Of a stretch of 64,000 nt of DNA, positions 9,678 to 63,814 are shown piece after piece. The stretch is taken from contig CAVWBU010000021.1 in assembly GCA_963753345.1 (NCBI GenBank), positions 96,001-160,000 on the forward strand, given 5' to 3'. The notes under the pieces were generated by a model. It was given only the letters and a program-made list of their open reading frames with translations. It made no database searches and was not told the origin of the DNA. Position 1 is the stretch's first letter. Every line of letters begins with the position of its first letter. A program made the translations under genes and the position numbers. This DNA comes from an uncultured Fibrobacterota bacterium (GTDB lineage Bacteria; Fibrobacterota; Chitinivibrionia; Chitinivibrionales; FEN-1185).

Positions 9678-10154
9678 GGGGGGATGTTTCCCCCTCGCTT
9701 CGGCCTCCTCGGCCTTTGGCCTGCGGTGTCCTCCGCTACCCCCTCCTGGGTAGCCGCCTTGACAAAGCAGTTGCCAGACCACACATTGTTGTGGCGGCAC
9801 CCGAGAAGAGTAGTTGAGAAGTTGAGGAGTTGAGAAGCTAACGCGTAGACGCGTTAACACGGTTACGTACTCATATTTTGGATGCCGATTGGCGCGAGAA
9901 GAAGTACTTGACAGAATAGACTTCCTTTGCCGCGCGCCAGGCCGGAACGGAGGCCGCGTTAGAACGTGGTGCCGCCCGGACCCGCCTTTTGTAGAGACGC
10001 AGCGGCGCTGCGTCTCTACAAAAGGAATAGGGCCGTGGCGGCCCGAGGCTGGAGGCCGACGACCCTTGGAAGCACCCGAAGGGGTGGACCGGAAGGAGAA
10101 CCGACCTCGGGTAAAGCCGCAAGGCATTGCGGCTTTACCCGAGGGAACGCCCAA
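9678..10154 (+). repeat. Bipartite structured intergenic repeat, copy A
   Basis: GGGGGA..TCCCCCTCGCT start, CCGCTACCCCCTCCTGGGT, GTTGAGAA octamers, CCGATTGGCGC, GGGAACGCCCAA end. Strand given is the putative folded strand. Confidence 0.9.
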
Positions 10155-10234
10155 TCTCATTTGTATCTCTTAAAGTTCAAGAAACAATCCAACCTTTTCC
10201 CCGCTCCCAAATCTAATATTATAAGGGCCGGTAT

Positions 10235-11941
10235 ATGGAATATCATCCTTTCTCGAATAACGGCGACGATTCCGCCGAATACCTCGCGCCGGACGAACCG
10301 GAAGGCAGGCTGCTTTCCGACGGCGAGTATGCACAGGCATTGACAGACCGTAACGATGTCTTTGCCATCGCAGGCGGGCACAGGCTGGCTGCAATCGAAG
10401 CGGTGGCATTGGCGGCGGGTGTGTTTTTTGGTCTGTGGCTCCACGCACAGCGGCTGAAAACTGTTGCACCGGATTTTCTCAGCTCAACGCAGAAAGAATG
10501 GACCGCGAGGCTGTTGCGCAGTAGGGAGATACAATTGCCGTCTCAGGCACTTGAGCAGGAAATGCCGGCGAGGGAAACTGCGGAGCTTGCAGCACCTGCT
10601 CTGCGATACGCGGACCGTGAGGCGATGAAGCGCGAGGTCCGACTGCCCAAGCCGGCTGCAATGCGCACTGCCGTAAAAGAATTGAAGTCCTCTTTGTCTA
10701 CAGAGCTCAAATCCGTAAGGGTCTCTGCGGTCGCCCGCCGGGAGCACGACACAGTGCAGGCGCTCCTGGAGAAAACAGTTGCAGAAAACGGGACTGCCAA
10801 TAATCAAGACACCGCACTTCCCGTGGGAGAGATAAGCAAGCTTATTGACCGGGGCAATGCCGTAAAGAAGTACGGCAACCGCGCAGAGGCGTTTAGCGCG
10901 TTCAGGCGGGTCTTGGCACATGATCCGCACAACGCCGCGGCTCTGGCCGGCGTCGGTGATTTATTTCTCTACACCGGCATCCTTGACTCATCGGCCGCGT
11001 TTTACAAGGCGGCAATTGCGGCAAACCCGCGCAATGCGGCCGCGCACAACGGGCTTGGTTCGGCGCTGTATTTCAACTCCACGCTTGTAACCAATCCGAA
11101 TTATGCCCGGCGCATGAACATTGCCGACCCCGAGCGGTACGCAAGAGCGCAGTACGACAGTGCGATTGCCGAATACACCGCCGCGATTTCTCTCGACAGT
11201 TCGCAGGTCCAGGCTCTCACCAACCGCGGCGTGCTTCGGGACATTAATGGCGACCGCCGGGCCGCGATTGAGGACTACACGCTCGCCCTGCGAATCAACC
11301 CGAAATGCGCCGATGCCTACAGCAAGAGGGCGGCCACCCTGAAGGCGCTGGGGAAATACAAGGACGCAATCGCCGATTACACCGCGGCAATCAATCTTGA
11401 CACCAGCTCGTACGAGTTCGACCCGAAAACCCACTTTGCAAATGCATACTTCGGCCGGGGGGTCGTGTTCTACAGGTCCGGCGACCTCGGCAGGGCGATA
11501 CGCGATTTTGACAGCGCTCTTGTGATCTCGCCGGACCATTCCCTTGTTATGATCAACCGGGCCGTCGCCTTGATTGACGAGAAGAAGTACGACGCTGCCG
11601 TTGCGGACCTTACCCGCGCGATTGCCCTGCTTTCGCCTCTTGAGTACGGCGGCGCACAGTATCTTGCCTGTTTACAACGGGGGAACGCGTATAAGGCGCT
11701 CGGTCAGTACGACAAGGCGATCGCCGATTACAATGCCGCTCTCGTGTCGAAGAATCTGGCCGCCCGGGCCTGCTGGAGGATCGCCGAATGTTTCTCACTC
11801 AAGAACGATGCCGATTCCGCCATTGCCTGGCTCAGAAAGTCCGCGGCGGCCGGGTTCAATGATTTTGGCGCCTGGCAAAGAGACAAAGCGCTTTCCCCAC
11901 TCTGGAACGCCAGGGAATTCAAGGAAATTGCCGGACAATAA
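10235..11941 (+). CDS. Membrane-anchored tetratricopeptide repeat protein
   Basis: N-terminal transmembrane segment and many TPR units (AIADYTAAI, AYSKRA, AYFGRG). Confidence 0.85.
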   Translation: MEYHPFSNNGDDSAEYLAPDEPEGRLLSDGEYAQALTDRNDVFAIAGGHRLAAIEAVALAAGVFFGLWLHAQRLKTVAPDFLSSTQKEWTARLLRSREIQLPSQALEQEMPARETAELAAPALRYADREAMKREVRLPKPAAMRTAVKELKSSLSTELKSVRVSAVARREHDTVQALLEKTVAENGTANNQDTALPVGEISKLIDRGNAVKKYGNRAEAFSAFRRVLAHDPHNAAALAGVGDLFLYTGILDSSAAFYKAAIAANPRNAAAHNGLGSALYFNSTLVTNPNYARRMNIADPERYARAQYDSAIAEYTAAISLDSSQVQALTNRGVLRDINGDRRAAIEDYTLALRINPKCADAYSKRAATLKALGKYKDAIADYTAAINLDTSSYEFDPKTHFANAYFGRGVVFYRSGDLGRAIRDFDSALVISPDHSLVMINRAVALIDEKKYDAAVADLTRAIALLSPLEYGGAQYLACLQRGNAYKALGQYDKAIADYNAALVSKNLAARACWRIAECFSLKNDADSAIAWLRKSAAAGFNDFGAWQRDKALSPLWNAREFKEIAGQ

Positions 11942-11988
11942 TTCTGTTGTAATAAGGCCGTTCCCCGCGTAATAGGAGACATCTAAGT

Positions 11989-12424
11989 GGGGGAAGTTTC
12001 CCCCTCGCTCCGGCCCGGCCGCGCAGCTTTACATACCGGTATTTTGGATATGCGCGGCCGGTCCTTCGCTACCCCCTCCTGGGTGCACCCCGAGAAAGTT
12101 GATTTGCGAGAAAGGTGCCTCGGTTGGGGGGCACCCGCGAAAAGCAGTTGAGAAGTTGAAATGAAGAAACGTTGAAAAGTAGGAAGAAGCCCGACCGATT
12201 TCTTGCGAATGCCGATTGGCGCAAGAAGAAGTGATTGACTGAATAGATCTCCTTTGCCGCGCGTTAGGGGCGACTGGAGGTCCCGCCATAGCGGGATGCC
12301 GCCCGGACCCGGCCCTGCGGGCCATAGGGCCGTGGTGGCCCGAGGCCAAAGGCCGAGACCGGAAGGAGAACCGCCCTCGGGAGGGGCCGCAATGCATTGC
12401 GGCCCCTCCCGAGGGAACGCCCAA
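11989..12424 (+). repeat. Bipartite structured intergenic repeat, copy B
   Basis: Same motif order as copy A; ends GGGAACGCCCAA. Confidence 0.9.
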
Positions 12425-12581
12425 TCTTTGTAATTAATCTCACGTTTGAAATATCTAATAAGTTTCGAGAAGCCCACACCGCTGCCAAAATTGTATATTG
12501 GTGCGTACCGGCCTTTCGCCGGTCAGTACAATTCTCGGGGCAGAGGGGGGCAAAAGACCCTTATCCAAGAAGGAATGACGC

Positions 12582-14748: not shown

Positions 14749-14752
14749 GGCG

Positions 14753-16060: not shown

Positions 16061-16091
16061 GCGCTGGTCCTTTCGTGCGGGGAGGGGAGCG

Positions 16092-19885: not shown

Positions 19886-19943
19886 ATTTGATAATATAAA
19901 AGATGCTTGGTGGGGGCACCGCTTTGTAAAGCGAGATAGAAGC

Positions 19944-20408
19944 TGGACGTTGCCTTCGCTGCGCTCAGGCCGGTCTCCTTCCGGGCTCGGCTGTTCGCCT
20001 CGTTGCCGGACCGCCCTATGCCTAACGGCCGGGTCGGCCGGCAATGCGCTCTAGCTCACCCTCCAGTCCACCTAACGCGCGGCATAGGAAATCTATTCAG
20101 TCAATAAACATTTCTTGCGCCAATCGGTATCCAAAACACACTTCTTACCTCCTAAACTTCTCAACCTCTCAACTACTCTTCTTGGGTGTCGCCACAGGAA
20201 GAAAGTTACAAAGTGACAAAGGGACAAAGAAAGAAAATTGCCCGGTACAACTACTCTCCAAGGGTGCCCTCACATGGGTGATTGATTCCTGCAACCAGCC
20301 TCACTTGGGGTGCACCCAGGAGGGGGTAGCGGAGGACTGGCGCGTGATTGAAAGTGAACAACAAATCAAAGGTGCGCCGGGCCGGAGCGAGGGGGAAACT
20401 TCCCCCGC
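19944..20408 (-). repeat. Bipartite structured intergenic repeat, copy C
   Basis: Plus strand reads TGGACGTT...CCTAACGCGCGGCA...CAGTCAA...TCTTGCGCCAATCGG...CCCAGGAGGGGGTAGCGGAGGAC...GAGGGGGAAACTTCCCCCGC. Confidence 0.9.
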
Positions 20409-20512
20409 CAAGTGTATCGTTATATCTATCCACCCATTTGACTCCTCCTCGATTCATACTATATTATTGAATACAAATACCACCCAGGAATTAATAAGGT
20501 AAAGGACTTTAC

Positions 20513-22051
20513 ATGATCCCAATTCTAACTACAGCCCAAATGCGGAAAATTGACAAAGCAGCAATCGGCGGAAACACGGCCGCCGGGTACTCGCTGATGA
20601 CGGAGGCGGGCGCGGGCCTGTTCGACGAAGCGCGAAGGCTCGTGATCACCCCCCGCAGCGGCGACATCACGGTGGTGTGCGGCGGCGGAAACAACGGCGG
20701 CGACGGGTTCGCCGCGGCCAGGCTGCTTCTTGAGGCGGGCTACAAGGTGATGTGCTTTGGACTTTGTCAACCGGACGACCTGTCCGGCGAGGCCAGGCTC
20801 GCCTACGATGCTTACGCAGGCCGCGAAGGTAATTTTCTGTTCCTCGACGACGTAGACGACCTTGGCAATTTGCACTCGTGCAGCCTCGTCATCGACGCCA
20901 TGCTCGGCACGGGAACCAAGGGCGATCCCCGCGGCCTGTACGCCGAGGTCATTGAGGCCGTCAACGCCGCGCAGGTGCCGGTGCTTTCGGCCGACACGCC
21001 GTCGGGCCTGGACAACGACCTCGGCACGGCCGGAACGCCGTGCGTGAAGGCAACGGTCACCGTCGCCATGGGGTTTCCGAAAATAGGGCAGTATTTCTAT
21101 CCGGGGAAATCGTTCGTCGGTTCGCTTCGTGTCAAGCCTCTCGGGTATCCGCCGGAAATTGTAGAGAAGAATTCGTCGCGCCTGTTTCTTCCCGAGGTTG
21201 ACGACCTCAGGAAAATGCTGCCGCCGCGCAAACCCGGCGGCTCCAAGTTCGACCACGGCGTGGTGCTCATGCTTGCCGGCTCGGCAGGCATGACCGGCTC
21301 GGCCGCGCTCGCGTCGGTTGCGGCGCTCCGCACCGGCTGCGGCATGGTGCACTGTGCGTCTCCCGCAAGCGCGGTCCCGGTGCTTGGCGCAAAGCTCACC
21401 GAGGTGGTGCTCCACCCGCTGCCGGAGACGAAGTCCGGAAGCGCGGCGCTTTCCGGATCGGAATGGCTGCTTTCCAAGGCCGCGACCTGCCAAGCGCTGT
21501 GCATCGGTCCCGGCCTTTCCCACGACGATGAAACGTCGGCCCTGGTGCGCAGGATGGTGACCAAGAGCCCGGTGCCCGTGGTGCTCGACGCGGACGGCAT
21601 CAATGCGTTCAAGGGCAAGAGCAACGAGCTTGCGTCACGCGCCGCGCCGCTGCTCATCACCCCGCACGCGGGCGAGTGGGCGCGGCTGTTTGCCGAAATG
21701 CCGAAAAGCCCGGTTGAGATTGTTGAAGAGCTGAGGAAAAAGGCAGCGGAATACTCGATGACCATTCTTTACAAAGGCAACCCGACCATCATCGCAGCGC
21801 CCGACGGCGCGGTGTTCCTCTCGCCGTACGGCAATTCGGGCATGGCAACCGCGGGATCGGGCGACGTTCTGAGCGGCATAATCACGTCGCTCGTGGCGCA
21901 GGGTTGCACCGTGACCGATGCGGCCATCCTTGGCGCATACCTTCATGGAAAGGCCGGCGATGCCGCGGCACAGGAGCTGGGCGAGTATTCGATGATTGCC
22001 GGCGACATTGAGAGGAATATTTACAAGGCGATACAAAAGTTGAAGAGTTGA
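20513..22051 (+). CDS. nnr: Bifunctional NAD(P)HX epimerase/dehydratase
   Basis: CGGGNNGGDG, IDAMLGTG, DTPSG, LDADG, ITPHAGE and MATAGSGDVLSG motifs. Confidence 0.93.
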   Translation: MIPILTTAQMRKIDKAAIGGNTAAGYSLMTEAGAGLFDEARRLVITPRSGDITVVCGGGNNGGDGFAAARLLLEAGYKVMCFGLCQPDDLSGEARLAYDAYAGREGNFLFLDDVDDLGNLHSCSLVIDAMLGTGTKGDPRGLYAEVIEAVNAAQVPVLSADTPSGLDNDLGTAGTPCVKATVTVAMGFPKIGQYFYPGKSFVGSLRVKPLGYPPEIVEKNSSRLFLPEVDDLRKMLPPRKPGGSKFDHGVVLMLAGSAGMTGSAALASVAALRTGCGMVHCASPASAVPVLGAKLTEVVLHPLPETKSGSAALSGSEWLLSKAATCQALCIGPGLSHDDETSALVRRMVTKSPVPVVLDADGINAFKGKSNELASRAAPLLITPHAGEWARLFAEMPKSPVEIVEELRKKAAEYSMTILYKGNPTIIAAPDGAVFLSPYGNSGMATAGSGDVLSGIITSLVAQGCTVTDAAILGAYLHGKAGDAAAQELGEYSMIAGDIERNIYKAIQKLKS

Positions 22052-22085
22052 AGCGTTGAAAAGTTGAAGCGTTGAGGAGTTGATG
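22037..22085. repeat. Octamer tandem array (NNGTTGAA-like) at the nnr stop
   Basis: AAGTTGAAGAGTTGAAGCGTTGAAAAGTTGAAGCGTTGAGGAGTTGAT; same unit as the central spacer of the large repeat. Confidence 0.75.
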
Positions 22086-22169
22086 CGCGGATGCGTAAAT
22101 GCGTTTAGGGTTTGAACAGCGGCAGGGAGGATAGAATACACGCAGGTTGACAGGAAGGAAACGACGACC

Positions 22170-25820: not shown

Positions 25821-25845
25821 CAGGATTGGCCAGCACTCCTCTGCG

Positions 25846-26012
25846 CCGCGTTAGGCCGGAACGGAGGCCGCGCTGGAGCGTGGTGCTGCCTGACCACGGC
25901 CCGGAGGGCCATCGTGGCAGGCAGCCCGAGGCCGAAGGCCGAGACCGGAGCGAGGGCCGACCCTTTGGTAGAAGCGAAATATATTTCGCCTCTACCAAAG
26001 GGTAACGCCCAA
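25846..26012 (+). repeat. Structured repeat copy D (GCGTTAGG...AACGCCCAA arm only)
   Basis: GCGTTAGGCCGGAACGGAGGCCGCGCTGGAGCGTGG...GGCCGAAGGCCGAGACCGG...GGTAACGCCCAA. Confidence 0.85.
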
Positions 26013-26027
26013 GTCATTCTTATCTCT

Positions 26028-29017: not shown

Positions 29018-29106
29018 CTAAGGGTAAAATAATATCCACAAACGGGCAAGTGTCACCAATACGGCGGCGTGGCGGAATCGTTTGACCGGCAAGAATAGAA
29101 TAGGAT

Positions 29107-29562
29107 TTGGGCGTTTCCCCGGCTATGTAGAGGCGTAGCGCGCTACTCCTCTACATAGCCGGGGTCGGTCTCCTTCCGGGCTCGGCTATCCGCCTCGTTG
29201 CCGGACCGCCCTATGCCTAGAGACGCAGCACCGCTGCGTCTCTACCGGCCGGGGTCGGCCGGCAATTCGCTCTGGCTCACCCTCCAGTCCACCTAACGCG
29301 CGGCAACCGTTATTATCATCAGTCAACTACTTATTCTTGCGCCAATCGGAATGCTCAAAATATCATGTAGTGTCTTTCCAGTCACTTCTCAACTTCTAAA
29401 CCTTTCAACTACTCTCCGTGGGTGCCGCCACAACAATGCATGGTCTTGCAACTACTTTGTCAAGGCGGTCACCCAGGAGGGGGTAGCGAAGGACCGGCGC
29501 GGAAAAAGATGAACTCTGAAAATATGAGTGCCGGGCCGGAGCGAGGGGGAAACTTCCCCCGC
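29107..29562 (-). repeat. Bipartite structured intergenic repeat, copy E
   Basis: TTGGGCGTTTCCCC...CCTAACGCGCGGCAA...TCTTGCGCCAATCGG...GGGTGCCGCC/GGCGGTCACCC...GAGGGGGAAACTTCCCCCGC. Confidence 0.92.
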
Positions 29563-29581
29563 AAAAAAGAATTTCTCTTCT

Positions 29582-31603: not shown

Positions 31604-31707
31604 GTATAAAGGGCTCCTGGTCTTGATGGGTTAGGTAAAATACTATGTAGTAATATGAGATAAGTCGTGATTATTGGTGGGGGAGGTGGAGCCAATAAAA
31701 AAAGAGA

Positions 31708-32172
31708 TGGGCGTTCCCCTCCCCCTCGACAAGCTCGGGGTCGGGTCGGCCCTCCCTCCGGTCTCGGCCTTCGGCCTCGGGCCGCCTCGGCCCTATGGCC
31801 CACAGGGCCGGGTCCGGGCGGCACCGCGCTCCAGCGCGGCCTCCAGTCCTGCCTAACGCGCGGCAACGATGTTCTTATCAGTCAATTACCTATTCTCGCG
31901 CCAATCGGCATCTGCAACAAATTAGTAAGGGCTTCATCTTTGCATTTTCTACTCTTCAACGTTTCAACTATTCAACTTTTCAACGCTCTTTCTTCTCAAC
32001 TCCTCAACCTCTCAACTACTTCCTCGTGGGTGCCGCCACAACAATGGATGGTCTTGCAACTACTTTTTCAAGGCGGCTACCCAGGAGGGGGTAGCGGAGG
32101 ACCGGCGCGTTTCAACGCGAGTAAGGCATACGATGAGCGCGCCGGGCCGGAGCGAGGGGGATACTTCCCCCG
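31708..32172 (-). repeat. Bipartite structured intergenic repeat, copy F
   Basis: Complete motif set with a long central TTCAAC octamer array. Confidence 0.92.
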
Positions 32173-32245
32173 CCCAGACCATGTTTTTATCCTTGCACTG
32201 CCTCCTCTGGATTTCATACCTCCGCCTCGTGTATTTTAAGCCTTC

Positions 32246-34997: not shown

Positions 34998-35017
34998 TTC
35001 TTAGAAAATATTTTGGT

Positions 35018-35648: not shown

Positions 35649-35663
35649 GGTATTTGTATTATT

Positions 35664-40907: not shown

Positions 40908-40920
40908 TATCTAAATACAG

Positions 40921-41243
40921 TTGGGCGTTCCCCCCTGAAGAGCCGCACTGCCGAGCGGCTCTTCAGGGGGGTCGGTTCCACCCCTCCGGGTGCTTCGAGG
41001 CGTCGTCCTTCCGGTCCACCCCTTCGGGTGCTTCTCCCTCGTCAGGGATTTCCAAGGGTCACAAGGGTCGTCGGCCTTCGGCCTCGGGCCATCTAATTGC
41101 AGAATGTAGATTGTAGAATGTAGATTTGAAATGCGAAGACCAACCGGAATGTTTTTTCAATCTACAATCATCAATCTAAAATCTACAATTAAGAGTCCGG
41201 GCGGCATCCCGCTTTGGCGGGACCTCCAGTCGCCCCTAACGCG
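40921..41243 (-). repeat. Structured repeat copy H, first arm (with nested inserts)
   Basis: TTGGGCGTTCCCC...GTCCGGGCGGCATCCCGCTTTGGCGGGACCTCCAGTCGCCCCTAACGCG. Confidence 0.88.
41094..41191. repeat. Inverted heptamer-array element (TAGATTG/CAATCTA) nested in copy H
   Basis: TAATTGCAGAATGTAGATTGTAGAATGTAGATTTGAAA ... TTTCAATCTACAATCATCAATCTAAAATCTACAATTA. Confidence 0.8.
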
Positions 41244-41397
41244 AAAGTCAAAAAACGGAAAACTGACAAAAGGTAATTAAAAATTGGGAACAGGGTGTGG
41301 ATGGATTTATTTTGATCAGTAAGGCAATGCTTTAGTAAAAACCGCTCGCGCCTGGCGTTTGAAGATGGATGCTTATCATATCAAATAGGATCCGTTC

Positions 41398-44300
41398 ATG
41401 AACTACAACCTCGATCCTATCCGCGATTTGGTCAAGAGATTCTCTCAAAACAAGGAATCCTACTCCGCCGCCTCCTACAACGAGACCCAGCTCCGCCAGG
41501 AATTCCTCAACCCGTTCTTCGAAGCGCTCGGCTGGGACGTTGCGAACAAGCAGGGCTTTGCCGAAGCGTACAAGGAAGTCATCCACGAAGACGCGGTAAA
41601 GGTCGGAACCGCGACCAAGGCGCCCGACTATTCCTTCCGGGTGGGAGGGACGCGCAAGTTCTTCGTGGAGGCGAAAAAGCCTTTTGTAAATATCAAAGAT
41701 GATATCAGCCCGGCTTTTCAGCTCCGCCGCTACGCATGGTCGGCAAAGCTGCCGCTTTCGGTGCTCACCGATTTCGAAGAGTTCGCGGTGTATGATTGCA
41801 GGCTCAAACCGGTCAAGACCGACAAGGCAAGCATCGGACGAATCCTTTACATAAAGTATGATGAATACGAAAAACGCTGGGAAGAAATAGCGTCTATCTT
41901 CTCGAAAGATGCGGTCCTCAAAGGATCGTTCGACCGGTATGCCGAAACAAACAGGGCGAAAAAAGGGACCACCGAGGTAGACGATTCGTTCCTTTCCGAA
42001 ATAGAGAACTGGCGCGACATGCTCGCGCGCAACATAGCGATCCGCAACGAAAAGCTTTCCACGCGCGAACTCAACTTCGCGGTCCAGCGCACCATCGACC
42101 GCCTTATCTTCCTGCGCATCTGCGAAGACCGCGGCATAGAAGATTATGGCAGGCTCCAATCACACCTGAACGGCGAAAACGTTTACAAGCGGCTTTGCGT
42201 TCTTTTCCGCGAAGCGGACGACCGGTACAACTCTGGCATTTTCCATTTCCGCGAGGAAAAGGGACGAGAGGAAACGCTTGACAGCACGACGCTTTCGCTC
42301 GACATAGACGATAAAGTGCTCAAGGAGATAATCGAGAACCTGTACTACCCCGAAAGCGCATATGAGTTTTCAGTCTTGCCCGCCGACATCCTGGGCCAGG
42401 TATACGAACAATTCCTGGGCAAGGTGATCCGCCTTACCACCGGGCACCAGGCAAAAGTAGAAGATAAGCCGGAGGTGAAAAAGGCAGGCGGCGTTTTTTA
42501 TACGCCGACGTACATTGTGGACTACATTGTAAAGAATACGGTGGGCAAGCTGCTTGAAAATAAAACCCCTTGGGAAGCTGAAAAACTTCGCATTCTTGAT
42601 CCTGCTTGCGGGTCAGGGTCCTTCTTGATAGGTGCTTATCAATATTTGTTGGATTGGCACCGTGATTGGTACACTAAGAACTGGCATGAGAAGTGGTGCT
42701 ATGGCAAGAATCCAAGGCTATATGAAGCACGGGAAAAGGAGTACCGGCTCACAACGCCAGAACGAAAAAGGATATTGCTCAACAGCATCTACGGCGTTGA
42801 CATTGACACACAGGCAGTGGAGGTTACGAAATTATCGCTTTTGCTGAAAGTACTTGAAGGGGAGAATGAGCAGAGCATCGCACAACAGTTAAAATTATTC
42901 CATCAGAGAGCTTTGCCGGATTTGGGGAATAATATTAAGTGCGGGAATTCTTTGATAGGAATGGATTTTTATGACGGTGTTCAGGAAACAATGTCGCTTT
43001 ATGAGGATGCCGAAATTGAAGATCGGATCAAGGTAAATGCGTTTGATTGGGATATGAAACACGGTTTTCAGGATATTATGAGGAGCGGGGGATTTGATGC
43101 GGTGATTGGGAATCCGCCGTATGGGGCTCAAACTTTCCAAGAAAAGCCGAAACTGAAGTTACCATTCTATAGAAACCATTATAAGCTGCCAAAGTTGGGT
43201 CAATTAGGACTTCTTATGTAATTGTTTATTGAAAGCGGTATTGACCTTACTCAGAAGTAAAAAGGGCTATTTGGGCTATCATTATTCCAGCCTCGTAGTT
43301 GTCTAAGGCGAAAGTATACATGCCATCAGCGCGAATTCATCCAAGTGGGAAGCATTAGTCGCAGTATAATGCATTTCGATGACCATTAGATATTTGAAAG
43401 TGCATACTACAGACACGTGATAATTGTTTTTCCTTAACTAAAGACCAAATGCAGATCCATTTTGTTTTCTAAAGAAAAGATGTAGATAAATGGATAACTC
43501 AAAGCATAGCCTAAAGATGTAGATCAAAGCTGACAGCATAATGGATAGGAATGGAGTTTTACCACAGGAAGAAATTCGGTTTTGTTCGAAAAGTTAAAAC
43601 CTTCCTTCGAAGCAAAAGAGATGTCGACAGATAAGATATTCCAAGGCCTTGTTACAATTGGTGATCTTTATACTTATTGGAAGAAATAGAATAATTGGCA
43701 AGATCCATGTGAGAGTAAACTCTTGGCGACAGCCAAACTCATATAAATCGGAAAGACAGGTTGTTCTACCTCTGTTCAAAGGATCCTGATATCCGAGGTA
43801 TTCTGCAACAACTACCAAACGAGAGATTTTTCCACACGATTTAGAAGCCTAAGATCTAACTGGCAAAGTTACAAGAATTGCACAATCGAATTTCGCAAAA
43901 TATTATCCCAATACGTGGAACTATCTAAACGAGAACGATGATTTCTTGCGGAACCGAGAAAAAGGGAAGATGAGACATGAAGGGTGGTATGGTTACATTT
44001 ATCCTAAAGGCATTGCATTGTTTGCAGAGAAGAAGATATTAACTCCTTCTATTGCCGCTACAGCTTCCTTTACGCATTGATAAAGACGGCGAATTGTACT
44101 TTGTGGGTTCGGGCACGCAATGACGGTGGTGGATATGGGCTATTCGCTCTAAAAAGCGGTGTGGAATTCGAGTATGCGTATCTTCTTGGCTTGCTGAATT
44201 CAACACTCCTTGATGTTGTTGCCTCAAGCTGATAAGATCTTGATTTAGAGGCAGCTATTATGCATAACCGTCATACATTGAACGACTGCCAATAACTCGA

Positions 44301-44535: not shown

Positions 44536-44694
44536 AACTTCGGTTCTTCCGGGCAACCAATTCCGCTGGCTGCAGATTGCTTCGCGGAGTTTATCCCGAG
44601 CTCTGTCGAGGGGCTCGCAGTGACACTTTTCTCTCTTCAATCCGCATTCCGCAATCCCAGCCCTGAGCTTTGTCGAAGGGATCAATCCACAATT

Positions 44695-44843
44695 CTCTCT
44701 TGGTGCCCCCGCAGCAGAAGTTTCTTTCTTGCAGACCAACTTGCTTGGGGGCTACCCAGAGGGGGCAGCGCAGGACCGGCGCGGAATAACGTGAACTTTG
44801 AAAATATGAGCGACGGGCCGAAGCGAGGGGGAGACTTCCCCCT
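44695..44843 (-). repeat. Structured repeat copy H, second arm
   Basis: GGTGCCCCC..TCTTGCAG..GGGGGCTACCCAGAGGGGGCAGCGCAGGACCGGCGCG...GAGGGGGAGACTTCCCCC. Confidence 0.88.
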
Positions 44844-44896
44844 GTAAATGATATTGATTTTGGAGAATGTTAAATGAAAGAGGATTGATTTTAAGG

Positions 44897-44970
<74 letters not shown>

Positions 44971-44982
44971 CCAAAAATAAAA

Positions 44983-45059
44983 TGGAGCGAGAGACGGGAT
45001 TTGAACCCGCGACGGCCACCTTGGCAAGGTGGAGCTCTACCAGTCTGAGCTACTCTCGC
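44983..45059 (-). tRNA. tRNA-Gly(GCC)
   Basis: GCGAGAGTAGCTCAG...CCACCTTGCCAAGGTGG...GGTTCAAATCCCGTCTCTCGCTCCA. Confidence 0.97.
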
Positions 45060-49574: not shown

Positions 49575-49600
49575 TTTCGTGGTTTCAATCTGTAAAGATC

Positions 49601-49815
49601 TGGGCGTTACCCCGCCTCGCGCTTCGGCGTGAGGCGGGGTCGGTCTTCTTCCGGGCTCGGCTGTTCGTCTCGTTGCCGGTCCGCCCTATGCCTTGCGGCC
49701 GGGCACCCCGTCGGGTGCTTCCAAGGGTCGTCGGCCGGCAATGCGCTCCACCGCACTTACCGTCGCCCCTAACGCGGCGGCAGACAATTGCTACTGGCAT
49801 TTTTTCGTGGCGCCG
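49601..49815 (-). repeat. Structured repeat copy I (first arm only)
   Basis: TGGGCGTTACCCC...GGGGTCGGTC..CTTCCGGGCTCGGCTGTTCG...CCCCTAACGCGG. Confidence 0.85.
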
Positions 49816-49965
49816 ACGATACTCTCGATTCAGGAAGAGATCAATGGATTCTTCTTTGGGTATCCTGAGTGTTGAGAATCAGAATTCAGGATTCGGCAAA
49901 TTACAGATGGATATATTTTGGGCGTCTCCAAGATCGATGAGAGATTTCATTACTTTCAACTTGAT

Positions 49966-50463: not shown

Positions 50464-50492
50464 GATTATTTCCTATTTTTGTAATTAAAGAC

Positions 50493-50940
50493 TTGGGCGT
50501 TCCCCTCTCTTCGCTCGGGTCGGTTCTCCTTCCGGTCTCGGCCTTCGGCCTCCGGCCGCCTCGGCCCTAGGCCGCTGTAGCGGCGGGTCCAGGCGGCACC
50601 GCGCTCCAGCGCGGCCTCCAGTCGCCCCTAACGCGCAGCAGAGGAATTCTATTCAGTCAAGTTATATCTATGCGCCAACCCAAGTTTCTATTGAGATTGT
50701 TTAGATTTTCTTCTTGAACTACTCAGCTCCTCCACTTTTCAACTCTTCAACGATTCAACTTCTCAACTTCTCAACATCTCAACTCTATTTCTCGGTGCCC
50801 CCGCAGCCGAAGATTCTTTCTTGCAAATCAACTCTCTAGGGGGCTACCCACGAGGGGGTGTGGGTGCCAATGTCGAGACGTTGGATTTTTGGCATTGGTT
50901 TTGAGTCTCGACATGGCACCCCAGGGGGACCCTTCCCCCA
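50493..50940 (-). repeat. Bipartite structured intergenic repeat, copy J
   Basis: Complete copy; terminal module of the same type as copy G (GGGTGCCAATGTCGAGAC...GTCTCGACATGGCACCC). Confidence 0.9.
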
Positions 50941-50945
50941 CCAAA

Positions 50946-51683: not shown

Positions 51684-51694
51684 ACGATTCTTTA

Positions 51695-54378: not shown

Positions 54379-54482
54379 GCGGGGCCAAGTTTACCTGCGG
54401 CACACTCAGTATCCGTTTACCGTTGCTCCCTTCCGGGCCTGGCGGGGTTCACAGACTGTCGTTGCGCAGGGCCTGGCCCCAC
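54379..54482 (-). ncRNA. ffs: Signal recognition particle RNA (small, 4.5S type)
   Basis: GTGGGGCCA...GTGAACCCCGCCAGGCCCGGAAGGGAGCAACGGTAA...TGGCCCCGC long hairpin with GGAA loop and SRP helix-8 motif; canonical position upstream of dnaX. Confidence 0.93.
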
Positions 54483-54601: not shown

Positions 54602-57600
54602 TCAATGCTTCATATTCTTGTTCAGCATTTCCGAAAGCTCCGCCAGGGTGAAGGGTTTGGAAATGCTTGCGGTAAAACCGTAGTCTGCGGGATTTTTCAT
54701 CACCGCATCATCGGTGTACCCGCTCGCAACAAAGATCGGGATCTCTTTGTTCAAATTCCGGATTTTTTTGACGGTTTCGATTCCGCCCATGCCTCCGGCG
54801 ACAGTGAGATCAAAAATCATCCCGCTGCATTGTCGTTTGGCACGCATTTCGCCGCCGTAGAAATCAACGGCCGCTTCGCCGTCATTCCTGCACACCACGG
54901 TGTATCCCATCGATTCGAGCATTTGTCGAAGCGTGTCCCGTACTACTTCTTCGTCGTCCATCACAAGGATTGTGCCGCTGCCCTTGTGCCTGCCGGTCGC
55001 GACTGTCTCCTTGACAACGGATTCCGGGGAAGCGGGCAGGTACACATGAAACGTGCTGCCCTTGCCCTGTTCGGATTCGACCTCGATGCAGCCTTCATGA
55101 CGGGTGATGATTGAATAACAGGTGGCGAGCCCGAGGCCGTGCCCCTTTGTTTTTGTCGTGTAGAACGGGTCGAAAATGCGGGGTATGATGTCCTTTGGTA
55201 TGCCGATGCCGTGGTCTTTGATTGACACCTTCACATAATCGCCCTTGGCCAGCGGGGGATGTTCCTTTTCTCCAAAAGAAATATTCCGGGCGGTTATTTC
55301 TATGTCCCCGCCGTTCGGCATGGCCTGCTGCGCATTGATGACGATGTTGTCGATTACCTGGCCGATCTGGTCCTTGTCGATATTGCACGGCCACAGGTTT
55401 TCGGGCAGGGAAAATTTGCACGAAATAGTCGATCCGCTGAGCGCGAAACGTGCGGTATCCTCAATGAACGGCGTCAAGGGTGTTATCTTTCTGGAGCGGG
55501 AAACCGCCCTTGGCAAAGGTCAGGAGCTGCAGGGTGAGCGACCGCGCACGGTTCATGGCCGCAAGCGTTGCCGCAAGGTATTCGGCGGTCTTCGCATCCT
55601 TCGATGAGGAACGGGCCAGGTCGATGTAACCGAAAATGCCGGTAAGCAGGTTGTTGAAATCGTGCGCAATGCCGCCGGCGAGCACGCCGAGCGAGTCGAG
55701 TTTCTGCTTCTGGTTAAGCTGGTCTTCGAGCGCCTTGCGGACTTCATCGGCCTTTCTGCGTTCGGAAATGTCTTCAATCAGGAACAAAAGGTGGTTTTCC
55801 CCGCCTGCGGAAAAAGGGGCGAACGAGGTGTTGAACCATGCGGTTTTCCCGAACGACGAGATGCTGCGGATTTCCTGTGTGACTGGTTTCCCTCCTGTCA
55901 ATGCACGGTCGGCACTTTCCAGAAGGCCATCGCGTTTCCAGGTTCCAAGGCTCCGGAAATTCTGCGCGAGCAGTTGTTCCGTCGTGCCGCCGATGATTCT
56001 CGCGGCCGCCTGGTTTGCCGATACGCATTCCCCCGATGCCTTGTAGACAAGCATTCCCACCGGAGACGATTCCAGTATCATTTTGTTGAAGGAAAGCGCC
56101 TCCATAATCTCCTGCTGGGCATGCTGCACGGCCTCCTGGGCCTGCTTGCGCTCGGTGATGTCGCGCACAATGCCCTGAAACCTGCCGTCTCCCAGCATTT
56201 TTCCGCTTATTTCGGTATAGACAACCGATCCGTCTTTCCGGCGCATTCGTCTTTCGCTTATGACCGTTTCTACGGACAGAAGTTCCTTGAATTTGATCGG
56301 GGAGGATGTGATTTCTTCGGGAAGCAGCAAGTCTTTCATTCCAAGGTGCAATATTTCCTCGCGTGAATAGCCGAGCATGGAAGTCGCCCGAACATTGGCA
56401 TCGGTGTAGTTCCCGTCCTTGATCGGAAATGAATATTGCGTCCGACGCCTGCTCCATGAGCGTGCGATAGTTGCTTTCGCTGTTCCGCAGCTCTTGCTCC
56501 ATGCGTTTGCGTTCGGTGATGTCTTGGACTATGGACAGGATGCACGCCCGGTGGCCCAGTCTGATCACCTGGGCGGAAAGCATCACCGTTTTGAAATCGC
56601 CCTTCTTTCCCTGCAACGTCGTTTCAAGGCCGTTAACGGGGCGGCCCTCGCGGAGAGCCGTTAGCATCCGCTGCCGGTCCTTTTCGTCAACCCACAATTT
56701 CAGGCTGAGCGTTGAGCTGGCGAGTGATTCTTCCCGGCTGAACCCCGACAGGGCGGTGAACGCGTCGTTGACCTCGATAATCCTGCCATCGTCCAAGTTT
56801 CCAATCATGTAGGCATAGGGAGAAGTCTTGAACGCCGTGGAAAGCGTTCCTCGCTCTCGCGCAGCGCAATCTCCGCCTGCTTGCGCGCGGTGATGTCGCG
56901 CGTGACGGCCACAAACGATACGGGCTTGCCCTCCGCATCCGTGATTGCCGTCGCGCTCAGTTCCCCATCAAATTGAGAGCCGTCCTTTTTGACAAAACGA
57001 TATTCAATATTGTTGACGAGCTTTCCCCGTCAGAGTTTTCTGCAAGTTTGAACCGGCGCGTTCATGTTCGTCCGGCGGAAACAGATCGAACGCACTTTTT
57101 CCGATCAGGTCTTCCGGACGTTCATACCCGTGCATGAGCGCAGTCTGGCGGTTGCACATGAGAATTCTGCCGCTCAGGTCGGTCTGCGTGATCGCGTCGG
57201 GCGAGGACTCGACCAGGGCGCGATAACGTATTTCGCTTTCTCTGAGCGCTTCTTCCATGCGTTTGCGCTCGGTGATGTCGCGGATAGCGGTCACCCTGAC
57301 CGTGCGCCCCTGGTAGTTTATTGATCTGCTACTGAGTTCGCCATTGAAAGTCGCGCCGTCCTTTCTCAGCCCTGTCGCTTCATACGGTTTTTCATAGCCG
57401 GAAAGAAAATTGTTGCGGACCAAGTCACGCGACTGGGGCGCGGCAAGGGTTAGAACGTTCATACCGATTAATTCCGAAAGTTTATAGCCGAACAGGTCGG
57501 CCATGGCCTGGTTCGCATCCAGAATCAGGCCTTTATCGTGAATGGCAATTCCTTCGAAACTGGCCTGGGCCAAACGGCTGAAACGTTCTTTACTTTCTTT

Positions 57601-57993
57601 AAGCCCATCCTCGGCCTGCTTGCGCTCGGTGATATTTTCAACCATGATGACAAAGTGTTCTTTCTCGGGGGAATGCACCACCATGTTCAGCCACAACTTC
57701 AGCCGTTCTATGGGTCGCTCAAAATGCTCGGGCCTGCCGGACAGTGCCACCCGTCCGTAGATTGCAAACAGTTCCTTGTTGGATTGCCAGACGCCGGGAA
57801 GGAGTTCCGTGACCTTTTTTCCAATTACATTTCCGAGTCCGGTCAATTTTCCGTATGCCTTGTTGACGTCAAGATAGATGAAATCGATTGGTTTGCCGGA
57901 CTTGAAAATCATCTTGCAGTGAGCAAAGCCGATGGGCATGTCTTTGACAAGGCGTTGATAGCAGTCGGCATGGCTGTCGCTCTCTTTCTTCAT
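54602..57993 (-). CDS. Multi-PAS hybrid histidine kinase/receiver, split by about 4 frameshifts
   Basis: Consecutive ORFs 57004..58074, 55774..56808, 55461..56378 and 54602..55516 give repeated PAS/PAC (DITERK), GGIAHDFNN, GHGLGL and receiver MDDE...KPF. Confidence 0.85.
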
Positions 57994-58291
57994 GGGTGTG
58001 ATCCTTTCCCCCCGGTCCGTTGACGGGCGGGATTTTGAGGACCAGTTTTGTGTTTTTCTTCTTTTCGCTGCCATGAGAATGTCGGCACTCCATGGGGCGC
58101 CGCCGCCTTTACCGCGACGCGCCCCGTCTCCTAAAAGTCAAAGTCCCTTAGACAAACTAAGTATTGCACAAAAGCAACGCAAATTTACAACATTTTTCGT
58201 TTTTGACCTATTAATCCGGTCATTATACTGCAACCGCTCGCCCATAGCATGTCGAAAGGTGAACGAAAAGTGCTGAAATCTAGACGGAATA

Positions 58292-59301: not shown

Positions 59302-59314
59302 TAAATCAAGAATA

Positions 59315-59346
59315 TTGGGCGTTCTCCTGATTGTGTAGAGGCGCAG
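59315..59346 (-). repeat. Truncated stub (M) of the structured repeat
   Basis: TTGGGCGTTCTCC...TGTAGAGGCGCAG matches the first about 35 nt of copy E. Confidence 0.6.
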
Positions 59347-59382
59347 TCCATTTCCCTATCTAAATCATTATTTCATCTTCAA

Positions 59383-60330: not shown

Positions 60331-60420
60331 TAATGGCCTCCATGGATTTGGTTGCGTGATATTACTCAATTATATCCTGGTTCCGGCAGATTGTCGATGA
60401 TATCAAAATAAAGAAAAGAG

Positions 60421-60837
60421 TTGGGCGTTCCCCTCGCTGCACTCGGGTCGGTCCACCCCTTCGGGTGCTTCCAAGGGTCGTCCCTCCGGTCTCGGGCTCG
60501 CCCTCGGGCCGCCTCGGCCCCTATGCCGGCGTACCGGCGGGGTCCGGGCGGCATCCCGCCATAGCGGGACCTCCGGTCGCCCCTAACGCGCGGCAGAGGA
60601 AGTCTTATCAGTCAACTACTTTATCTTGCGCCAATTGGTATCCGGAAATCGGGGCTTCTTCAATATGTTTTCTACTTTTCAACTGCTCCTCGTGGGTGCC
60701 GCCACAACAATGCATAGTCTTGCAGCTGCTTTATCAAGGCGGCTACCCTAGAGGGGGTAGCGCAAGACCGGCGCGGAATGCGGTGAACTTTGATGATGTG
60801 AGCGCCGGGCCGCAGCGAGGGGGAACCTTCCCCCGCC
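60421..60837 (-). repeat. Bipartite structured intergenic repeat, copy K
   Basis: Complete motif set. Confidence 0.92.
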
Positions 60838-61016
60838 TAAATCATTGCTTTATGACTTTTGTCGAAATATCACCCTGGCGATAATCGAAAACTCAAGAAT
60901 AGAGGAAGATGGTGATGAAGGGTGGCCATTGACACTAGAGGTCAGGTCAAGGTATATTTGTAGCCTAAAATTCATAATTATAGGTAATGAAACTTGTAAT
61001 AACGAAAGGACAATTC

Positions 61017-61412
61017 ATGCGCTCCTCCCTGACCGCTGGCCTCGTGATGCTCAACAGTGCGGCATTGTTCGCCCAGACCGCCACAGGCTCCCAGCCCGGC
61101 ACCAAGAACATGATGCCCACCCTCCTCATGATGGGCGTTGTGTTTGCCATTATTTACTTCCTCATGATCCTTCCGCAGCAGAAGAAGCAGAAGGAGACCC
61201 AGAACATGCTCAAGAACGTGAAAAAGGGCGACCGGATTGTGACCGTCGGCGGCTTGCTCGGGACCGTTGGCAACGTGAAGGACGACACGGTGATGGTGAA
61301 GATCGCGGACAACACGGTGGTCGAATTCAGAAAAAGCGCAATCGGCTCGATCCTGAGCGACGTAAAGACAGGAGACAAGACCGAACCCGACAAGCTGGAG
61401 AAAAAGGCGTAA
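61017..61412 (+). CDS. yajC: Preprotein translocase subunit YajC
   Basis: IYFLMILPQQKKQK and KKGDRIVTVGGLLGTV; GAAAGGA RBS. Confidence 0.94.
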   Translation: MRSSLTAGLVMLNSAALFAQTATGSQPGTKNMMPTLLMMGVVFAIIYFLMILPQQKKQKETQNMLKNVKKGDRIVTVGGLLGTVGNVKDDTVMVKIADNTVVEFRKSAIGSILSDVKTGDKTEPDKLEKKA

Positions 61413-61417
61413 TTTTC

Positions 61418-61957
61418 ATGCTCCACATCCATTATTACGGCGATCCTATATTACGGAGAAAAGCCAGGCAGGTTGCGGCGTTCGACGACGAGCTCGGCGC
61501 GCTGGTGGACGACATGATCGAGACCATGGCCGAGAACGACGGCGTGGGGCTGGCCGCTCCGCAGGTGGGACAGTCGAAGCGCCTCGTGGTGATCGACGCC
61601 ACCAAGGGCGAGGCGCCGCCGTTCGTGCTTGTCAATCCGGTATTCACCTATTTGTCCGACGATCTCGTGGAGCGCGAGGAGGGATGCCTGAGCTTTCCCG
61701 ACATACATCTGGATATCAAACGTCCCTCCGTTGTGTCCGTCAGGGCCTTTGACAGGGCCGGAAAAGAATTCAGCATTGACAAGGCGGACGATCTTCTCGC
61801 CCGCGCGCTTCAGCATGAGATGGACCATCTGGACGGCCTGGTCATCACCGACCACATTTCGCTGCTCCAGCGCAGGCTTTTGTCCGGCAAGCTCAAGAAG
61901 ATCGCGGCCATGGCGCCCGGCAAGGCTGTGCGCGAAAGTAAAGCAAAAGCCGTGTGA
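61418..61957 (+). CDS. def: Peptide deformylase
   Basis: GVGLAAPQVG, EGCLS and QHEMDHLDG motifs. Confidence 0.96.
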   Translation: MLHIHYYGDPILRRKARQVAAFDDELGALVDDMIETMAENDGVGLAAPQVGQSKRLVVIDATKGEAPPFVLVNPVFTYLSDDLVEREEGCLSFPDIHLDIKRPSVVSVRAFDRAGKEFSIDKADDLLARALQHEMDHLDGLVITDHISLLQRRLLSGKLKKIAAMAPGKAVRESKAKAV

Positions 61958-63393
61958 GCGCCGCACCCGCCGCCCGATCGGTCGTGACGTCCCTTTTCAC
62001 ACAATCCGTATGCACTGCCATGATGCGTCTCGCAACCGTTTCCGCCGCTATCCTTCTATGGGCGTGCATGGTCCAATGCGCGCCGACAAGGCAGGTTGCT
62101 TCACATAAAGGAACGGCCGGCCCCATGCTCCTTGCACAGAACGAGACCGGCCGCGCCGCCGGCGACGTGTGGGACGTCGAGCCGCAGGGCCGGCCCGCTC
62201 CTGAGCGGTCGTCCGGGTATTATGCGGACGGCGCGAATTTTCACGTTCCGTCGTCATGCGTGCGCGTGATGCTGCGCCCGAACCAGTCCCGCGCGGCCGT
62301 GCGCTCGTCCGGAACCGTGGCGCTGCACAACGGCGGCACGTTGGGCGCAGTGTCGTTTTCCGGGAGCGCGTCCGTTGAGCGCGGCGACGCCGCCGGCAGG
62401 GTGTTCGTTTCGGCCGGAACGCTCGGCAGGATAGGGGTCGTGCTTCCGTGCACGTTGCTTTCCGCAAGCGAATCCGGCATGGTGGTCATCGAAAACCTCG
62501 CGTGCCGCGGCTCGATCATCATTTCTGCGGAACAGGGAGGGCTTTTCTCGCTTGCAAACTTTATTGACGTGGAAGACTATCTTCGCGGCGTGGTGCCCCT
62601 CGAGGTGGGGAAGGGCGGCGCCGACGTTGCCGAGGCGGTGAAGGCCCAGGCGGTTGCCGCGCGCACCTACACGTACCGGAAAATGCAGGACAATGCCGCG
62701 GCCGCCTACGACGTGAGCGCCACCGTGTCCGACCAGGTCTACGGCGGCGCCGAGGCCGAAGCCGAGGCATGCAGCAGGGCGGTCGCGGACACGCGGGGCG
62801 AGGTGATGCTGTACCACGACAGCCTCGTGTACGCCTATTACCATTCCACGTGCGGGGGCAGGACCGCGAATATCGAGGACGTGTGGAACAAAAGCAGGCT
62901 CGGGTATCTGCGCTCGGTTGACGATGAAAACGGATGGTCGGGGCCGTACTGCGGGCAATCAGGGACGTTTGCATGGGAGGAGCGCTGGTCGCTCGCCGCG
63001 TTCACGAGCATCGTGACGCGCTTCTCCCGCGAGGCGTACCCGCAGAACGCCTGCACCGGCGACGTTCGGAGCGTGACCATCGACGCGCGCTTTTCATGCG
63101 GCAGGGTGAAACAGTGCGGTGTGCATACGTCAAGCGGCACGTTTGTGTACGGCGGCGACAGGATCCGCTTTGTATTCCGCCGCAACCAGCCCGGGTTTCC
63201 CATCCTGAAAAGCAGCCTCATCACCGACGTGTCGGTGCGCGACGGCGCGGTCGTCATGAAGGGCCGTGGCTACGGCCACGGCGTGGGCATGTGTCAGACC
63301 GGCGCGCTTGCAAGGGCGAAACACGGGCAGAAGTATGATGAGATTCTTCATGCGTACTATACGGGGATTACGATACGTAAAGTGACAAAATAG
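61954..63393 (+). CDS. SpoIID/LytB domain protein
   Basis: EDYLRGVVP.E, KAQAVAARTY, DQVYGG, YHSTCGG and GYGHGVGMCQ motifs. Confidence 0.92.
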   Translation: MSAAPAARSVVTSLFTQSVCTAMMRLATVSAAILLWACMVQCAPTRQVASHKGTAGPMLLAQNETGRAAGDVWDVEPQGRPAPERSSGYYADGANFHVPSSCVRVMLRPNQSRAAVRSSGTVALHNGGTLGAVSFSGSASVERGDAAGRVFVSAGTLGRIGVVLPCTLLSASESGMVVIENLACRGSIIISAEQGGLFSLANFIDVEDYLRGVVPLEVGKGGADVAEAVKAQAVAARTYTYRKMQDNAAAAYDVSATVSDQVYGGAEAEAEACSRAVADTRGEVMLYHDSLVYAYYHSTCGGRTANIEDVWNKSRLGYLRSVDDENGWSGPYCGQSGTFAWEERWSLAAFTSIVTRFSREAYPQNACTGDVRSVTIDARFSCGRVKQCGVHTSSGTFVYGGDRIRFVFRRNQPGFPILKSSLITDVSVRDGAVVMKGRGYGHGVGMCQTGALARAKHGQKYDEILHAYYTGITIRKVTK

Positions 63394-63407
63394 AGACAAG
63401 ACAGAAT

Positions 63408-63814
63408 TTGGGCGTTCCCCTCCCCCTCGACTTCGCTCGGGGTCGGGTCGGCCCTCCTTCCGGTCTCGGCCTTCGGCCTCGGGCTGCCACGGCCGTATGC
63501 CGCTTCGCGGCCGGTCCGGGCAGCACCGTGCTCTAGCACGGCCTCCAGTCCTGCCTAACGCAGCGCATGCGGGATTCTTATCAATCAAATATTTCTTCTC
63601 ACGCCAAACTGCATTCGCAGACATCAGCCAAGATTACTTTCTTTGCTTTTCAACTACTCTACGTGGGTGCCCCCCAACCGAAGCAACTTTCTTGCAAATC
63701 AACTTCCTTGGGGGCCACCCAAGAGGGGGTAGCGGAGGACCGGTCGCGCACCTCCGGGATACTTGTTTGTAAAGCGGCGCGGCCGGGCCGCAGCGAGGGG
63801 GAGTCTTCCCCCGC
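63408..63814 (-). repeat. Bipartite structured intergenic repeat, copy L
   Basis: Complete motif set. Confidence 0.92.

Follow-up and report, generated by a model that had tools for sequence, protein, structure and literature searches.

We analysed a 64-kb window (positions 96,001–160,000 of contig CAVWBU010000021.1, C21) from the genome of an uncultured Fibrobacterota bacterium, in which long structured repeats recur between genes. In its full form, here called a composite, the repeat consists of a first structured module (arm 1), a linker with a variable tract of short tandem units, and a second structured module unrelated to the first (arm 2). The assembly under study, G000, comprises 55 contigs with a total of 4.52 Mb and 56% GC and is 94% complete. 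With moderate confidence we read the repeats as a mosaic of independently spreading structured modules located in gaps between genes, comparable to the bacterial interspersed mosaic elements (BIMEs) of E. coli and to the BOX elements of pneumococci.

Using copy F (31701–32180) as nhmmer query, we obtained 15 matches in the window with E-values from 1e-4 to 1e-148. The coordinates after one profile iteration match those of a list of copies given in an earlier note on this DNA, the stub of that list being confirmed by reading alone. Direct reading likewise reproduced the described layout of arm 1, linker, tract and arm 2. As also described there, both orientations occur and every copy in the window lies between open reading frames (ORFs), judged on a crude longest-ORF map. 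The window contains nine composites (A, B, C, E, F, G, J, K and L), two copies without arm 2 (D and I), the copies H1 and H2, and the stub. The copies, together with one armless tract, are as follows:

9678–10155, minus strand: copy A, composite; arm 1 10155–9923, spacer, arm 2 9811–9678 (nhmmer, E = 4e-87)
11982–12429, minus strand: copy B, composite; arm 1 12426–12250, arm 2 12145–11984 (nhmmer, E = 1e-103)
19939–20412, plus strand: copy C, composite with an insert in the tract; two nhmmer matches, 19939–20200 and 20246–20412
22030–22113, minus strand: orphan tandem 8-nt tract without arms, reading as the antisense of the tract motif and located where ORF 20513–22051 ends (repeat family D3)
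25831–26018, minus strand: copy D, arm 1 only (nhmmer, E = 4e-35, profile positions 1–176)
29102–29566, plus strand: copy E, composite (nhmmer)
31701–32178, plus strand: copy F, the reference; arm 1 31705–31870, linker and tract 31871–32017, arm 2 32018–32176 (nhmmer)
35012–35653, minus strand: copy G, composite; arm 1 35653–35441, arm 2 35194–35012 (nhmmer)
40918–41255, plus strand: copy H1, solo arm 1 after hisD (alignment; nhmmer match 41194–41243)
44684–44844, plus strand: copy H2, solo arm 2 adjoining two tRNA genes (nhmmer, E = 6e-32)
49594–49866, plus strand: copy I, arm 1 and linker (nhmmer, profile positions 1–250)
50487–50945, plus strand: copy J, composite between convergent ORFs, with the longest tandem tract of the window (nhmmer)
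59315–59350, plus strand: stub, 5' terminus of arm 1 only (read directly)
60415–60841, plus strand: copy K, composite upstream of an ORF with a peptide deformylase domain (nhmmer)
63403–63816, plus strand: copy L, composite (nhmmer)

Several copies deviate from the reference by inserted material: copy A has additional hairpins within arm 1, copy G has about 245 nt of extra perfect hairpins between its two arms, and H1 carries a nested mini-hairpin and AT-rich inserts. The stub, a 10-nt arm 1 start followed by about 30 nt, gave no nhmmer match.

Across G000 the profile produced 523 matches, which merged into 489 loci covering 145,379 nt or 3.2% of the genome; these counts are slightly inflated by small contigs repeating larger ones at 98–100% identity, flanks included. 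The spread through the genome that had been proposed from the window alone is borne out by these 489 loci and by matches in relatives. Both arms were present at 181 loci, arm 1 only at 186 and arm 2 only at 88, with 34 fragments making up the rest, so that an arm stands alone at 274 of the 489 loci. When pairwise identities were compared for 154 composites, arm 1 was uncorrelated with both arm 2 (r = 0.01) and the linker (r = -0.03), and the highest of the three correlations between arm 1, linker and arm 2 was r = 0.05. A Mantel test on these composites gave the observed value or more in 33 of 200 permutations. Matches between different sites with at least 88% identity were nearly all 100–190 nt in length, and only 2 of 4,343 were longer than 350 nt. 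Since the identity of arm 1 fails to predict that of the linker or of arm 2, the composite is not a self-copying unit. It is a stereotyped arrangement of separately inherited parts, of which there are at least three in fixed order and orientation: arm 1, the linker with its tract, and arm 2. The idea of a single bipartite element, as the family had initially been described, does not hold given the unlinked genealogies, the 274 solo loci and the different taxonomic ranges of the two arms (genus and phylum, respectively). As to the redundancy among contigs, the pairs concerned include C4/C16, C10/C39, C44/C46, C54/C32 and C55/C15, among others, which indicates either strain heterogeneity or redundant contigs in the assembly.

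Solo modules also account for the one copy in the window that had been listed as split (40921 and 44695). In the region between its two parts (41398–44300), a 607-aa ORF encodes Eco57I/MmeI-type methylase and HSDR_N domains. The next 1 kb or so has 16 stops in the frame of this ORF, which is possibly a truncated type IIG restriction-modification gene. Relatives of this gene occupy two other sites in a congeneric genome (G005). Because these sites are not bracketed by arms, H1 and H2 are better read as two solo modules than as one split copy, and the restriction-modification gene was rejected as a cargo. Two further observations concern ORFs of the window. The ORF following copy K (60845–61957, 370 aa) has its peptide deformylase domain only at residues 192–343, and its crude start, 3 nt past the copy, probably over-extends the gene into the repeat. 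Inside long minus-strand ORFs (55461–58074), five copies of a 53-nt segment are spaced 357–382 nt apart at 56107–57633 (family D13); the pattern resembles that of protein domains repeated in tandem.

Arm 1 is a multi-helix module of about 140–195 nt that is closed by a 5-bp helix (GCGTT/AACGC). In the consensus fold the closing helix is followed by a variable hairpin of 0 to about 20 bp, situated directly 3' of the 5' block, and by a long-range helix around three inner hairpins. Small perfect hairpins are nested in the loops and differ from copy to copy. Consensus folds were taken from profile-column alignments, MAFFT alignments of 349 arm 1 and 193 arm 2 copies being too gappy to fold; in these folds each arm pairs with itself and not with the other arm. 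In arm 1 of the 12 window copies, both partners vary in 18 of 44 pairs, in comparison to 11.1 ± 1.7 in shuffled alignments (none of 500 reached the observed number) and 3–11 in slid controls. Genome-wide, pairs switch their Watson-Crick type across subfamilies: profile columns 56–145 are TA in 188 copies and CG in 143, columns 85–118 CG in 232 and GC in 107, and columns 125–138 CG in 223 and TA in 156. The two hairpins that the earlier note had quoted as covarying are present as given there. Its more general claim, that stems are kept by compensatory changes, is supported for arm 1 by the window copies and for arm 2 only once distant relatives are included. A clear strand could not be assigned to arm 1. 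An initial count of 2214 G-U against 506 A-C cells was biased by prediction on one strand, and no claim regarding the strand of arm 1 rests on it; the unbiased count over the 55 pairs with at least 80% Watson-Crick pairing gave 223 G-T and 190 A-C cells, and the antisense strand was slightly more stable in 65% of the copies.

The linker is conserved in sequence, without a predicted fold. The tract following it is poor in G (11.6% G, 28.6% C and 34.8% T) and contains 0–12 CAAC units per copy, which are spaced by 8 nt in 244 and by 7 nt in 89 of 426 cases. Arm 2 ends in a G5/C5 hairpin. In the window it is nearly uniform, with only one of 34 pairs changing on both sides among 10 copies. Wider alignments were fitted to a covariance model of arm 2 (R1; 159 positions, 34 pairs). 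Order-wide, pairing holds in 93.6% of the cells, and both partners vary in 21 of 34 pairs (shuffles 13.2 ± 1.6); phylum-wide the values are 93.2% and 23 of 34 (shuffles 9.0 ± 2.0, slid controls 2–5). For arm 2 the more stable fold is that of the sense strand in 71% of 133 copies, and helix 1 is rich in U-G pairs, found in 9, 12, 6 and 5 of 16–17 lettered cells. Most copies have the tetranucleotide GTAG immediately 5' of the conserved helix. Outside the genus we found arm 2 in a compact form of 76–197 nt, in which a 5' GGGGCGTT block precedes a short hairpin; then come an invariant purine-rich block including the GTAG, a helix and the terminal G5/C5 hairpin. The central helix can have any sequence around a conserved internal loop, and near-invariant sequence blocks persist phylum-wide. 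Arm 1 of the genus under study starts with the same 5' block (GGGGCGTT) as the compact form, which is why insertion into a compact ancestor is a possible origin of the composite.

Covariation of this kind could also be a by-product of mutation at the DNA level, if palindromes were corrected by template switching and copies homogenised by gene conversion, with no selection acting on the fold. Variable hairpins that are often perfect palindromes up to their centre (copies B and E) would be expected under this explanation, as would the swapping of whole hairpins between sister species and the similar numbers of G-T and A-C cells in an arm 1 without a clear strand. However, covarying pairs are separated by about 90–100 nt (columns 50–151 and 56–145), an asymmetric internal loop is kept throughout the phylum, as are invariant blocks that do not pair, and helices that are GC-rich in one family and AT-rich in another are still 94–98% paired. 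We therefore regard a purely mutational origin of the covariation as improbable.

The two arms differ strongly in their distribution. A BLAST search with copy F returned hundreds of candidate matches in four of five congeners and none in the fifth (G003, 99% complete). A covariance model of the arm 1 core (R2; 112 positions, 36 pairs) gave strong matches in five of the six species of the genus only; of the 75 other genomes in the order, three had one marginal match each. The arm 2 model R1, by comparison, matched 34 of 81 genomes and 16 of 33 genera of the order, and at E ≤ 1e-4 it matched 86 of 151 sampled genomes and 26 of 54 genera of the phylum. In one family with small and well-assembled genomes 50 of 55 were positive, and two single-contig genomes had 25 and 13 matches, respectively. 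In a viral collection one exact pattern match was found, a compact element of the arm 2 type at 9726–9797 of an IMG/VR contig (L164, 12,987 nt; 49.9 bits). Arm 1 is thus restricted to the genus, and its arm 2 is an expanded member of a phylum-wide Fibrobacterota element that is absent from Rfam. Literature searches on Chitinivibrionales and Chitinivibrio, on repeats in Fibrobacterota and on RNA or repeats of Fibrobacter succinogenes turned up no such repeats among the records listed. In another genus of the order (g7; L105, L107, L010 and L137) tracts of TTGAC/TTGAT hexamer repeats flank the compact elements. These tracts are present at empty orthologous sites, too, and look like a native intergenic feature rather than a part of the element.

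To place the repeats among described families we scanned the 64-kb window against Rfam 15 at gathering scores. No family was detected apart from two tRNAs and the signal recognition particle (SRP) RNA; the latter is of the bacterial small type (54380–54478, minus strand, 61.5 bits), and the two tRNA genes lie at 44900–45059 on the minus strand. Lowering the threshold did not change this result, with no relevant family at E ≤ 10 over copies E and F and none at E ≤ 1 over five compact relatives. The scan leaves the elements without a described family, and the resemblance to the Flavo-1 motif that had been proposed for the ends of arm 1 did not hold up at this sensitivity in any of these sequences. 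A protein-coding reading was rejected as well. Chance ORFs of 139–190 aa span copies, but five ORFs spanning elements had no Pfam match, copies F and B share 83% of their nucleotides and, over 94 aa, only 54% of their residues, and their reading frame breaks off at the tract. Copies further differ by 8-nt units and by insertions and deletions the size of hairpins. The earlier statement that the copies share no ORF agrees with the missing Pfam matches and with a residue identity far under the nucleotide identity. That the repeats represent a described RNA family, Flavo-1 or another, or a small coding gene has in our view, at the sensitivity of these searches, practically no chance of being correct, the similarity of termini given in the earlier note and the chance ORFs being all that speaks for it. 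The repeats are, as proposed, non-coding, structured and spreading, and the folded molecule may be RNA or single-stranded DNA.

We then looked for enzymes that could mobilise the repeats. In systems of repetitive extragenic palindromic (REP) sequences, such as the REPIN-RAYT system, the gene of a Y1 transposase, the REP-associated tyrosine transposase (RAYT), is flanked by the repeats. In G000 and in G001, its closest relative, no match to the Y1 domain (PF01797) was found, and G000 had none to the TnpB zinc ribbon (PF07282). The reverse transcriptase domain (PF00078) had no match in G000, G001 or G005. A single IS110 gene is present in G000, at a contig end and 2.8 kb from any copy. No terminal inverted repeats were seen at the element ends beyond a 7-nt likeness of the two ends. 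No RAYT/TnpA, IS110 or reverse transcriptase gene thus adjoins the copies, in agreement with the previously noted absence of an associated transposase.

The possibility that the repeats are REP-, REPIN- or palindrome-associated transposable element (PATE)-type sequences moved by a Y1 (HUH) transposase, be it of the RAYT or of the IS200/IS605 kind, deserves separate consideration. In the order, Y1 transposases are widespread, 65 of 81 genomes having one, and the placement of our repeats in tandem and convergent gaps corresponds to that of REPs. Furthermore, the GTAG directly 5' of the arm 2 helix resembles the REP superfamily, which is defined by GTAG-tagged palindromes, with units of 20–40 bp and an unpaired GTAG or CGTC at one end (PMC3733652). 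Across the order, however, presence of a Y1 gene is not associated with arm 2 (28 of 34 genomes that carry arm 2 have one, as do 37 of the 47 that lack it), PF01797 is missing from both G000 and G001, and no arms flank any of the three Y1 loci looked at in G004 and G002. The units of 76–197 nt are multi-helix folds with long-range pairs, in contrast to the 20–40-bp hairpin of a REP. Movement by a Y1 transposase therefore appears highly improbable.

Next, we assessed individual sites by synteny with the five congeners (G001–G005). We found sites that are occupied in one genome and vacant in another as well as reversals of orientation. The site of copy F is empty in G002 (gap of 116 nt) and G003 (252 nt) and that of copy G in G004 (29 nt). 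At the site of copy E the element of G005 lies in the opposite orientation, and at C19:3689–4129 the element is inverted in G001 with both flanks conserved. Presence and absence also vary in another genus, where none of the four congeners compared has the compact copy that G025 carries between the end of one gene and an EF-Ts-like gene. Even where both genomes carry an element, its sequence has changed rapidly: six of six orthologous elements of G000 and G001 are only 39–73% identical, versus 86–92% for non-element DNA in the same alignments. The kind of change differs between sites. At the F site both genomes have the same 5' junction, a sign that an inherited copy was replaced from within, and the interior of arm 1 is that of another subfamily. 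At the E site the core is nearly identical, and both variable hairpins and arm 2 have been replaced; at the G site everything differs. An 85-nt arm 1 variant with a nested mini-hairpin in H1 (41005–41090) is 98–99% identical to at least 12 sites in G005, a species whose coding DNA is only 65–76% identical to that of G000, which suggests a recent amplification or a transfer between species. Modules thus multiply and turn over at the DNA level, and single loci are rewritten fast while the sequence of the family is tightly held.

The position of the repeats relative to genes was analysed on a simple ORF map rather than with a gene caller. Convergent gaps are enriched, with 141 elements observed and 92.5 expected, and in 285 of 467 cases (p = 2e-6) the gene flanking the arm 2 end runs convergent to the element's own orientation. 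For the upstream gene there is no orientation bias in G000 (234 to 233). Between tandem genes the element is antisense in 144 of 237 cases (p = 1e-3). Element ends facing a stop codon lie at a median distance of 21–30 nt, compared to 68–95 nt for those facing a gene start. The local GC skew runs counter to the element in 244 of 427 cases, which is no excess over the antisense bias of elements to genes, so that we found no separate bias for a replication strand. Of 22 loci outside the genus, 16 have a co-directional upstream gene, and the start of the element is usually found between -9 and 74 nt past the stop of the upstream gene. Canonical terminators at gene ends in 17.5 kb of the window did not exceed expectation (27 versus 22.2 ± 3.8) and none coincided with conserved element positions, and a scan for promoter and terminator consensus sequences gave nothing at these positions, either. 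The placement close behind stop codons suggests that the copies are tolerated, or serve, as structures following the 3' ends of genes.

The main rival of the mosaic reading is not exclusive of it: the arm 2 core could primarily be a functional cis-acting RNA of 3' untranslated or intergenic regions, acting in termination, processing, stability or insulation and bound by a host protein that is itself conserved, with amplification and the fusion to arm 1 being secondary. Much about arm 2 would fit such a role. Its blocks and fold are conserved across the phylum, the sense strand is the more stable one in most copies, and the U-G pairs of helix 1 would be A-C mismatches on the other strand. Outside the genus, elements mostly follow a co-directional gene close to its stop codon, as described above. 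Canonical terminators are lacking at gene ends in the 17.5 kb, and the G-poor tract may resemble a loading site for Rho. Against this explanation, the distribution is patchy, with 65 of 151 phylum genomes and one 99%-complete congener lacking a match, orthologous sites may be filled or empty and elements flip their orientation. In G000, moreover, the upstream gene shows no bias and elements between tandem genes are more often antisense. We regard a primary function as RNA as a serious, though clearly lesser, possibility.

For the mosaic of spreading modules we propose the following course of events. The fold and the invariant blocks would be recognised by a trans-acting factor, either for copying and exchanging modules or for acting on transcripts. 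Gene conversion among the approximately 490 copies would be the simplest explanation for the swapping of modules. Copies would persist where they do little harm or bring some benefit, i.e. about 20–30 nt past stop codons and most often between convergent genes, and in these places they could form hairpin-rich transcript ends. The mobilising enzyme would not be one of the usual ones in this genome; copy-rich genomes without RAYT, TnpB or reverse transcriptase suggest a mobiliser of an unrecognised kind.

A number of findings weigh against this proposal. Selfish repeats do not usually keep exact sequence blocks across a phylum, as is the case here, and a host function would fit such conservation better. 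Nor does the proposal account for modules that are genealogically unlinked and yet keep one order and orientation. No mobilising enzyme was found in G000 among those looked at (Y1, TnpB, RVT_1 and IS110), and neither exact insertion boundaries nor a target-site duplication were found at the four sites considered, where junction DNA was too diverged to align. Finally, about one fifth of the convergent gaps are filled, which makes co-occupancy of the same gap by chance plausible, and some of the apparent replacements at orthologous sites may be independent insertions.

To our knowledge interspersed structured repeats are known mostly from proteobacteria and firmicutes, and for most of them neither function nor mobilisation is understood. 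REPs and BIMEs occur in enterobacteria and pseudomonads, BIMEs being mosaics of REPs in alternating orientation with defined linker motifs between them. Our repeats share with REPs and BIMEs the high copy number of GC-rich, hairpin-forming intergenic sequences, the construction from modules and linkers, the preferred location after genes and between convergent genes, the differing sequences at orthologous sites of related species and, for REPs, the GTAG beside the palindrome, here 5' of the arm 2 helix. Unlike the BIME, which likewise has a conserved linker, they combine two unrelated arms in one direct orientation. One of the modules is conserved in sequence across a whole phylum, which distinguishes it from REPs and BIMEs, and in contrast to the REPIN-RAYT system there is no RAYT in G000 and no association of Y1 genes with arm 2 across the order. 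BOX elements consist of an end module, a variable number of tandem units and a different end module (boxA-(boxB)n-boxC). The likeness of our composite to BOX lies in this architecture, with short tandem units in variable number between two different ends, and in hundreds of intergenic copies with no known transposase; the tandem unit measures 8 nt here and about 45 nt in BOX. Whereas the ends of BOX pair with each other, our arms fold on themselves, and they also occur solo and with different taxonomic ranges. Small size, lack of coding capacity, multiple copies and presence or absence varying between relatives are reminiscent of MITEs (small transposable elements with inverted repeats) and PATEs, which derive from insertion sequences, IS200/IS605 among them, and are non-autonomous, but no terminal inverted repeats beyond the 7-nt likeness and no parent insertion sequence are found here. 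Guide RNAs of TnpB/IscB and retroelements differ from our repeats in that G000 has no PF07282 or PF00078 match.

Going one step further, the arm 2 core might be a new phylum-wide class of structured element with a recognition protein of its own, which either spreads without the known transposase families or is a transcript-end or insulator signal turned mobile, and which in this genus recruited a second module and the tract and grew to 3% of the genome. We consider this rather unlikely as a whole. In practical terms, the repeats break metagenome assemblies and yield false ORFs of 139–190 aa. The sister species, in which hairpins and modules are rapidly swapped at fixed sites, provide a clear record of exchange between dispersed copies. 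With one module conserved in sequence and fold in a phylum that includes the cultured and tractable Fibrobacter, its transcription, partners and mobility can be tested at the bench.

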